A stretch of 10,051 nt of DNA, from the IMG/VR virus record IMGVR_UViG_2531839235_000014; one strand, 5' to 3'. A program made the translations under genes and the position numbers. This document shows positions 9,186 to 9,593 of the stretch, one piece after another; the first letter of the stretch is position 1; the number at the start of each line of letters is the position of its first letter. This DNA comes from a virus. Its lineage: Duplodnaviria; Heunggongvirae; Uroviricota; Caudoviricetes. A model generated the notes under the pieces. It worked only from the letters and a program-made list of their open reading frames with translations. It made no database searches and was not told the origin of the DNA.

Positions 9186-9593
9186 GTCACGTTCTGACGT
9201 CCTGTGTTAAAAACTGATGCATAATGACCGCTGTGATTTTTCAGATTTCACACAGCAGCACCATATTTGATCGATATTTGCACAATGCGGTTGTTTTATC
9301 CGGTTTCTTCCACCACCGCACCGGACAGGCGGCTTCGCGGGAAATCGCTCCCATCTCGTGAAAAATGAGAAAACCCGGTGTGCATCGTTTTTGATTATCC
9401 CCGCACACTCCCGCAGAGAAGTTCCCCGTCAGGGCTGTGGACATAGTTAATCCGGGAATACAATGACGATTCATCGCACCTGACATACATTAATAAATAT
9501 TAACAATATGAAATTTCAACTCATTGTTTAGGGTTTGTTTAATTTTCTACACATACGATTCTGCGAACTTCAAAAAGCATCGGGAATAACACC

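Follow-up and report, generated by a model that had tools for sequence, protein, structure and literature searches.

Clark et al. 2001 reportedly described conserved boundary sequences at the mosaic joints of lambdoid phages. A moron, as it is said to have been conceived by Juhala et al. 2000, is a unit of promoter, gene and terminator inserted between late genes. The term moron is quoted in PMC4104026. In lambdoid phages, homeologous recombination has been described to leave a near-identical 'hit' with a 'shoulder' of lower identity of about 200 bp as its signature (Martinsohn, Radman and Petit 2008, PMC2327257). Here we analyze a joint of this kind in a 10,051-nt stretch of DNA from a virus of the Caudoviricetes (IMG/VR record IMGVR_UViG_2531839235_000014); the whole stretch is called the window below. 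The joint lies in the 408-bp interval between the lipoprotein gene bor and the gene of the small terminase subunit, terS (positions 9186–9593). The same gene order, Rz - bor - open reading frame (ORF) - terS - terL - portal, is found in 933W, VT2-Sakai (Sp5), phi24B and other Sepvirinae. A joint between modules is an ordinary, known kind of phage mosaicism in this well-sequenced family, and the 933W-like Shiga toxin (Stx) phages are known mosaics. We have found that the interval is a chimera of two parents, and that the switch between them falls inside a conserved non-coding element of about 183 bp. The explanation that we favor, with a probability of about 0.8, is that the interval represents the left-hand joint between a bor cassette of the lambda/DLP12 type and a 933W-like (Sepvirinae) backbone, formed by recombination in this shared element.

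The bor–terS interval as a two-parent chimera

Using MegaBLAST with positions 8300–10051 of the window, we obtained matches in 419 phage records. Identity to 933W, Stx2-86, VT2phi_272, VT2-Sakai and PA2 was 99.3–99.5%, and over the 408-bp interval identity reaches 100% in many phages, including 933W, phi24B and TL-2011c. Judged by this identity, the window is the late region of a 933W-like (Sepvirinae) Stx phage. The taxonomy lines of the close relatives give Sepvirinae, their DNA is near-identical, and the gene order is that of the type phages. The joint in the interval is present at an identity of at least 99% in 124 phage records; therefore, it is not an assembly artefact.

In order to place the joint, the interval was aligned column by column with lambda (imm434 record) and with Stx2_EH0787, a Sepvirinae phage without bor. 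The two identity profiles turned out to be reciprocal. Over the terS leader (9186–9298), which is on the side of the Sepvirinae packaging module, identity to EH0787 is 100% and identity to lambda is at the background of 38%. Identity to EH0787 remains 100% while identity to lambda rises to 46% at 9299–9370 and to 85% at 9371–9404. At 9405–9481 the window is 100% identical to lambda and 58% to EH0787, and at 9482–9593 the values are 100% and 38%. All 189 bases of 9405–9593 are as in lambda. Since the final mismatch to lambda is at 9404 and the earliest mismatch to EH0787 is at 9411, the crossover is confined to the six bases ACACTC at 9405–9410, with EH0787/Sepvirinae-type DNA to the left and lambda-type DNA to the right. 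The interval is a clean two-parent chimera. The BLASTN boundaries are broader: identity to lambda reaches 9371, at 98.1%, and stops there without continuing into the terminase genes, and EH0787 shares the terS side of the window up to 9478.

The crossover site sits in the near-invariant core AAACCCGGTGTGCATCGTTTTTGATTATCCCCGCACACTC, the best-conserved stretch of about 40 bp of the conserved non-coding element. The element itself (9299–9481, starting with TCCGGTTTCTTCC and ending with CGATTCATCGCAC) is found at the lysis/packaging boundary of lambdoid phages. A first-pass annotation, made from the sequence letters, had proposed a mosaic junction with its breakpoint in or near this non-coding interval and a conserved linker at the module boundary. 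The junction is real and lies inside the interval, and a linker was indeed found, with the joint inside it.

Within the shared element, a 100% tract is bordered by a shoulder of 85% and then 46% identity against the background of 38%, which fits the homeologous recombination signature of PMC2327257. In the cases described there, a near-identical tract located between functional modules is likewise accompanied by about 100–200 bp of intermediate identity, and phages whose neighboring modules differ have it in common. In contrast to those shoulders, the shoulder of the window is one specific recurrent element with invariant blocks and hairpin-compatible variation, and not arbitrary diverged homology. 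The exchange is also visible in a single pair of positions. The pair 9404:9452 covaries among the variants of the element, being C:G in 47 variants, G:C in five lambda-type variants and U:G in seven. A G.G mismatch is found only in the window-type chimera, as would be expected if the crossover separated the two pairing partners.

The lambda-type half of the interval has the same sequence in several known genomes. The region upstream of bor in lambda (about 46753–47032) and the ybcV–borD region of the K-12 prophage DLP12 are identical to the window from 9405 to the bor ATG, and the same holds for HK630. The terS-proximal 58% of the element is a different allele in the window, 46–85% identical to lambda and DLP12. 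Beyond the element, lambda and DLP12 continue with p78/ybcV, p79/ybcW, a ylcI-like ORF, cos and Nu1, whereas in the window an unrelated terS follows after 113 bp. The first-pass annotation had placed cos directly after bor in lambda. This is not correct, as about 1.75 kb with p78, p79 and the ylcI-like ORF lie between them.

The joint could also have been made by illegitimate recombination at a random point, with the product surviving as no gene was disrupted and the element playing no part. Illegitimate joining is credited with about half of the lambdoid mosaic joints (PMC2327257), and at its outer edges the element too meets unrelated flanks in sharp joints. However, a homologous element stands in register in both parents, the switch falls in the most conserved 40 bp or so with no insertion, deletion or filler, and the 100% tract is bordered by the shoulder of intermediate identity. 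In addition, the terS-proximal type of the window's element (a3) is found with two different bor-proximal types (b0 and b1), which already points to recurrent joints at the same core rather than to a random origin. We consider illegitimate joining very unlikely here. The placement of the joint within 6 bp of shared sequence supports homology-driven over illegitimate exchange at this boundary.

Both parents carry a homologous copy of the element of about 183 bp, located in each case where the lysis cassette borders on the packaging genes. According to the favored explanation, the diverged copies would have recombined with a crossover at 9405–9410, in the best-conserved core of about 40 bp. On the left, the product would retain Sepvirinae DNA at 9186–9404, that is, the terS leader and the terS-proximal 58% of the element. 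On the right, it would have gained lambda-type DNA from 9405 on, with a complete moron unit consisting of the promoter (9438–9464), the PhoP box (9525–9541), bor and a hairpin (9894–9919). A second crossover would have taken place in the homologous Rz, at 9996–10033 in 933W and PA2 and past 10051 in the window. We infer that the copies were joined by homologous or homeologous recombination, in which recombinases of the Red-like type or of the host may have acted. Presumably, bor replaced a Rha-like gene.

Several points weigh against this explanation. An identity of 6 bp alone cannot tell homologous from illegitimate joining, and it is the homology around these bases that carries the argument. 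The direction of the exchange is taken from extant relatives only, and loss of bor or replacement of bor by rha is equally compatible with the sequence. The right-hand crossover of the window's own phage is outside the window, and over 9400–10051 no phage record exceeds 98.9% identity. The promoter is a depositor's annotation with a short spacer of 15 nt, and PhoP binding is a prediction from the sequence.

The exchanged unit and the bor cassette

The right-hand boundary of the lambda-type DNA was assessed in Rz. Of the lysis cassette, the window covers no more than the 3' end of Rz and a part of Rz1. The final 43 codons of Rz (9919–10051, minus strand, cut by the window end) are lambda-type: 42 of the 43 residues are those of the lambda Rz C-terminus, the exception being the GTG codon with which the translated stretch begins. 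There are no mismatches to lambda at 9870–10051. In 933W, the lambda-like tract ends by about 10314, with 93.8% identity overall. In both 933W and PA2, the informative sites change within Rz, at a point between 9996 and 10033, from lambda-type to EH0787-type, and S, R and ant of 933W are annotated as Qin/H-19B/P22-like, i.e., non-lambda. Thus, of the first-pass assignment of the lysis and bor module to the lambda type, bor and the 3' part of Rz/Rz1 were confirmed; the rest of the lysis cassette lies outside the window, and S, R and ant are annotated as non-lambda in 933W and PA2. The window is still lambda-type at 10034–10038, whereas 933W and PA2 are already EH0787-type at 10034, 10035 and 10038. 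Therefore, the window's own right-hand crossover lies beyond 10051. These differences indicate repeated or different crossovers within Rz among very close relatives.

Comparison with the bor-less sister phages shows what lies outside the cassette. PA2 and EH0787 are 97% identical on both sides of it (6686–9478 and 9938–11042), and EH0787 has an ORF of 183 amino acids (aa), Rha-like, where bor sits. Because the bor-less sisters share both flanks and the lambda-like patch ends in Rz, the exchanged unit is most likely a bor cassette of about 0.6 kb bounded by the element and Rz, and not the packaging system.

The first-pass annotation had favored a different event, the swap of the packaging system. 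In that explanation, the joint arose when a 933W-type packaging and head module replaced a lambda-type module in an otherwise lambda-like late region. All DNA from 9405 to the window end is lambda-type, and everything to the left is non-lambda. The terS gene (8379–9185, minus strand) encodes a protein of 268 aa of the 933W/Sepvirinae type that matches PHROG 370 'terminase small subunit' (E 4e-125); it is annotated as terS in 933W, phi24B and Sakai Sp5, and the non-lambda packaging and head module begins with it. It is followed on the minus strand by terL (8398–6692), whose 568-aa product matches PHROG 2, and by the portal gene (6692–4548; P22_portal PF16510, E 8e-127). Further on are an ORF of 335 aa taken as the scaffold gene (4390–3383, minus strand) and the coat gene (3359–2145, minus strand; Phage_capsid_3 PF13252, E 1.5e-88). 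TerS and TerL gave no Pfam-A match at E ≤ 0.01 and were identified by PHROG profiles only. By these profile matches, the packaging and head module is non-lambda, in agreement with the first-pass claim that these genes are unrelated to those of lambda. The element adjoins different packaging modules in different phages, and so such swaps do happen there. However, the lambda-like patch of 933W and PA2 is just about 0.6 kb and ends inside Rz, their R, S and ant are annotated as being of other types, the bor-less sisters share both flanks with PA2, and the left-flank family of the window goes with four right-flank families. A packaging swap at this joint is therefore unlikely, and the exchange of the small bor cassette remains the reading that we prefer.

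The bor gene (9594–9887, plus strand; Lambda_Bor PF06291, E 8e-31) is a lipoprotein moron gene transcribed against the late operon. Its sequence has 8 differences from lambda bor, and 94 of the 97 residues of Bor are identical to lambda Bor. Phages of the EH0787 type have the Rha-like ORF in place of the gene, and in Stx2-1717 and Salmonella phage 29485 its place is taken by KilA-N genes. A promoter-like site directed towards bor (TGGACA-15 nt-TACAAT, 9438–9464, plus strand) lies in the lambda-type half of the element and exactly matches the 'promoter' in the GenBank record of HK630. This feature is the depositor's annotation, and its short spacer of 15 nt is the reason why a simple scan missed it. 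Alleles of the element that are not linked to bor have GGTCT and TACGGC at the two hexamers.

The PhoP box has the consensus (T/G)GTTTA-N5-(T/G)GTTTA. This pattern has one match in the window, the perfect box TGTTTAGGGTTTGTTTA at 9525–9541 (plus strand), 53 bp upstream of the bor start codon, and none in 200 shuffles. The sequence upstream of K-12 borD is identical at the PhoP box. It is known that borD is induced with the PhoP regulon and that the BorD protein rises in a PhoQ-dependent manner (PMC5740661). The idea that the AT-rich stretch before bor belongs to the bor promoter region, also raised in the first-pass annotation, is thus supported at the sequence level. The promoter and the PhoP box may be active in this phage.

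A perfect hairpin with a stem of 11 bp, GAGTTGCCCAT-CGAT-ATGGGCAACTC, lies between the convergent stop codons of bor and Rz (9894–9919). It is probably the bor terminator. There is no T-run after the hairpin, and the terminator scan did not call it. In a weak, chance-level Rfam match to STnc470 of Salmonella (15 bits, E 0.28), the hairpin is the sole aligned part; this suggests that the two have a terminator-like module in common, and not that the small RNA (sRNA) itself is present.

Like other morons, bor of the window lies between late genes, is opposed to late transcription, has its own promoter-like sites and is followed by a hairpin. In contrast to the moron concept, one allele of a shared element contains a part of the bor promoter region. 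Therefore, the cassette can move by homologous exchange and not by illegitimate insertion.

The conserved element: spread, neighbors and possible function

The spread of the element was determined in several collections. Scanning IMG/VR with one 16-base pattern gave 120 stretches, nearly all of which were true homologues; they comprise 60 distinct variants with a mean column identity of 85%. Phage records with the element number 398; lambda, 434, mEp460, many Stx phages and Salmonella phage 29485 are among them. Searching with the Salmonella variant showed that ES18 and SPN3UB also carry it. Among the complete genomes of E. coli, 4,582 of 5,426 (84%) contain the element. It occurs at 11,717 places in total, and the number per genome has a median of 2 and goes up to 11. 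Plasmid records account for 694 of these places; they may be phage-plasmids or plasmids with prophage fragments. HK97, HK022 and P22 are without the element.

In species-representative genomes, exact matches to the core were also obtained outside Escherichia (Pseudomonas, Cohnella, Brevibacillus, Shewanella and others). These matches are on contigs of about 48.4–48.5 kb or about 3.5–3.6 kb; one such contig is the Arcanobacterium 'plasmid unnamed1' of 3,566 bp. Evidently, they represent lambda control DNA (the whole genome or the nanopore control amplicon) left in the assemblies. A wider taxonomic spread was rejected on this ground.

The position of the element is constant. In lambda, the whole element lies at the same place, upstream of bor and just after p78 (about 46865–47032 in lambda). 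It lies between ybcV and borD in DLP12 of K-12 and is also found in Sakai Sp5. In lambda, DLP12, the EH0787 type, ev110, Stx2-1717 and ES18, the element is always between the lysis and packaging genes. In Lambda_ev110 (Jouyvirus) and Stx2-1717 (Pankowvirus), phages that share nothing else nearby, it is 75–79% identical; Stx2-1717 has no bor, and an HNH gene and terS follow the element.

To compare the contexts, all copies of the element were oriented as in the window. On the right, almost all copies have Rz/Rz1, endolysin and holin genes, and bor is present in just 37 of 121 element loci. On the left, 68 of 121 loci have a DUF3950/YlcI-like small gene that is directed at the element, with its end 3 nt away. 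On inspection by eye, this small gene has ribbon-helix-helix-like sequence features, and lambda has a homologous YlcI-like ORF about 200 bp from cos that is unannotated in NC_001416. Next beyond on the left are lambda Nu1, HNH with a 187-aa terS, the 933W-type 268-aa terS, or a 148-aa terS (Salmonella phage 29485; ES18-type), so that at least four unrelated packaging modules adjoin the element. Clustering sorted the flanks of 137 loci into 13 families on the left and 10 on the right, which occur together in 33 combinations. The window's left-flank family pairs with four different right-flank families. The terS-proximal type a3, as in the window, occurs with both bor-proximal types b1 and b0. 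This indicates exchange inside the element.

An ORF of 81 aa (ECs_1218 / vb_24B_26; 9241–9486, minus strand) overlaps the conserved element. In RefSeq records of Stx phages it is labelled as a hypothetical protein or 'Rz-like spanin', and PHROG 6954 has the same label. Variable columns are distributed over its codon positions 1, 2 and 3 as 23, 22 and 18. In most variants, each of the three late-sense frames is interrupted by stops, and the lengths of the indels are not divisible by three. With no third-position bias and no conserved frame, the ORF was rejected as a protein-coding gene; the 'Rz-like spanin' is probably spurious.

We also assessed whether the element corresponds to a known RNA. 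A comparison of the window with Rfam 15, including the prophage sRNAs AgvB, AsxR, Esr41 and STnc100, gave no match at the gathering level. The best matches at E ≤ 10 in 9000–10051 had 12.7–16.6 bits against gathering scores of 35–80, which is the level of chance. Known prophage sRNAs were rejected by their location. AsxR and AgvB are located 3' of stx, and the phi24B small RNA 24B_1 is in the lom–vb_24B_43 region, whereas the ORF of the window is vb_24B_26. The Pas sRNAs are reported from sites beside holin/lysozyme, Q or structural genes, and we found neither terminase nor spanin named in connection with them. The supplements of the paper on Hfq crosslinking and immunoprecipitation (Hfq-CLIP) have no entry for ECs1217–1219 or for the Sakai coordinates of the region. 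In the literature on the ECs1218 ORF, borD/ybcV and ylcI/DUF3950, we found no account of the element.

The folding of the element depends on the strand. In the sense of the late transcript, RNAalifold gave a consensus of -18.9 kcal/mol compared to -7.8 +/- 3.2 for column shuffles (z -3.5). In the bor sense, it gave -4.1 kcal/mol (z 0), and a structured RNA or terminator in this sense was rejected for want of a consensus structure. Predicted late-sense helices include 9382–9388/9466–9472 and 9396–9402/9454–9460. When the late-sense structure was refined by hand, 97.4% of cells pair on it, compared to 36–64% for slid controls. Five pairs show double changes, a count reached by 2 of 500 shuffles, and G:U is found at 14 pairs in the late sense versus 6 in the opposite sense. 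The Salmonella variant, which is 74% identical, keeps helix B through the changes C:G to A:U and C:G to U:A. By our own reading of the alignment, it also keeps the terminal hairpin 9299–9304/9320–9325 through three double changes. The structures were derived from the same sequences that were used to test them, and these are of low diversity (85% column identity). Thus, the RNA-structure signals of the element are moderate and late-sense-biased, suggestive and not conclusive. A late-sense promoter feeding the element was not seen by eye; the sole match of the scan is a weak bor-sense site at 9480–9507. By eye, the late sense also contains a Chi-like octamer, GGTGGTGG or GATGGTGG, that differs from GCTGGTGG by one mismatch and is probably coincidental.

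These signals bear on another explanation of the conservation. The element may be a structured RNA of the late Q-dependent transcript, with a role in processing, stability or as a leader; it would then be conserved for its function, and recombination in it would be a by-product. The late-sense bias of the fold, the compensatory changes in the Salmonella variant, the lack of a coding signal and the very wide spread of the element are in favor of this. On the other hand, true compensatory changes are few owing to the low diversity (85% column identity), the structures were built from the tested sequences, single-sequence folds are unexceptional (z -0.3 to -2), and some changes in the variable hairpin favor the other strand. 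The absence of the element from HK97, HK022 and P22 means that it is dispensable, no Rfam family matches it, and the inverted repeats could equally be sites at the DNA level. We regard this explanation as a tentative possibility.

The terS side and the meaning of the joint

The terS leader shows some conservation of its own. It contains a hairpin, GCTGTG..CACAGC, at 9230–9256. In GER2, the sequence is about 80% identical to the leader of the window, through 9340, and the hairpin is kept with one G:U-compatible change in the late sense. Over about 80 nt upstream of the terS start (9186–9265), conservation between the window and GER2 is apparently at least as high as that of the terS coding sequence. 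It is possible that these 80 nt or so, including the hairpin, are a terS leader element.

Inside terS there is a 12-bp tandem repeat GATTTCATGATC with 4.4 copies (8997–9049), which encodes a D-H-E/K-I/T repeat just past the N-terminal region. The repeat stretch is missing from terS of GER2, whose packaging region is otherwise about 89% identical. The repeat was rejected as a packaging (pac) site, being a variable low-complexity linker that GER2 lacks. The packaging initiation region that the first-pass annotation had considered possible in the interval received no support. In the literature on 933W packaging, we found nothing informative on the packaging site, and the starts of phage records are conventional and not physical ends.

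The exact sequence of the interval is present in more than 100 public genomes, and little is gained from it as a mosaic joint. It does offer a clean case in which a lambdoid joint is placed within 6 bp inside a shared conserved sequence. In this case bor, a serum-resistance determinant whose expression is PhoP-dependent in K-12, travels as a cassette between Rz and the element. The joint also draws attention to a very common, unannotated non-coding element over which a probably spurious ORF has been annotated. This ubiquitous element that holds the joint is the sole part with some potential for novelty: it is absent from Rfam and from genome annotation despite its presence in most complete E. 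coli genomes. We suggest, tentatively and as less than an even chance, that it is an undescribed functional non-coding element of E. coli lambdoid prophages, in that case most likely a structured segment of the late transcript and perhaps also a preferred DNA crossover site. If this is true, the second role, at the DNA level, would let bor-type cassettes and whole packaging modules be exchanged.

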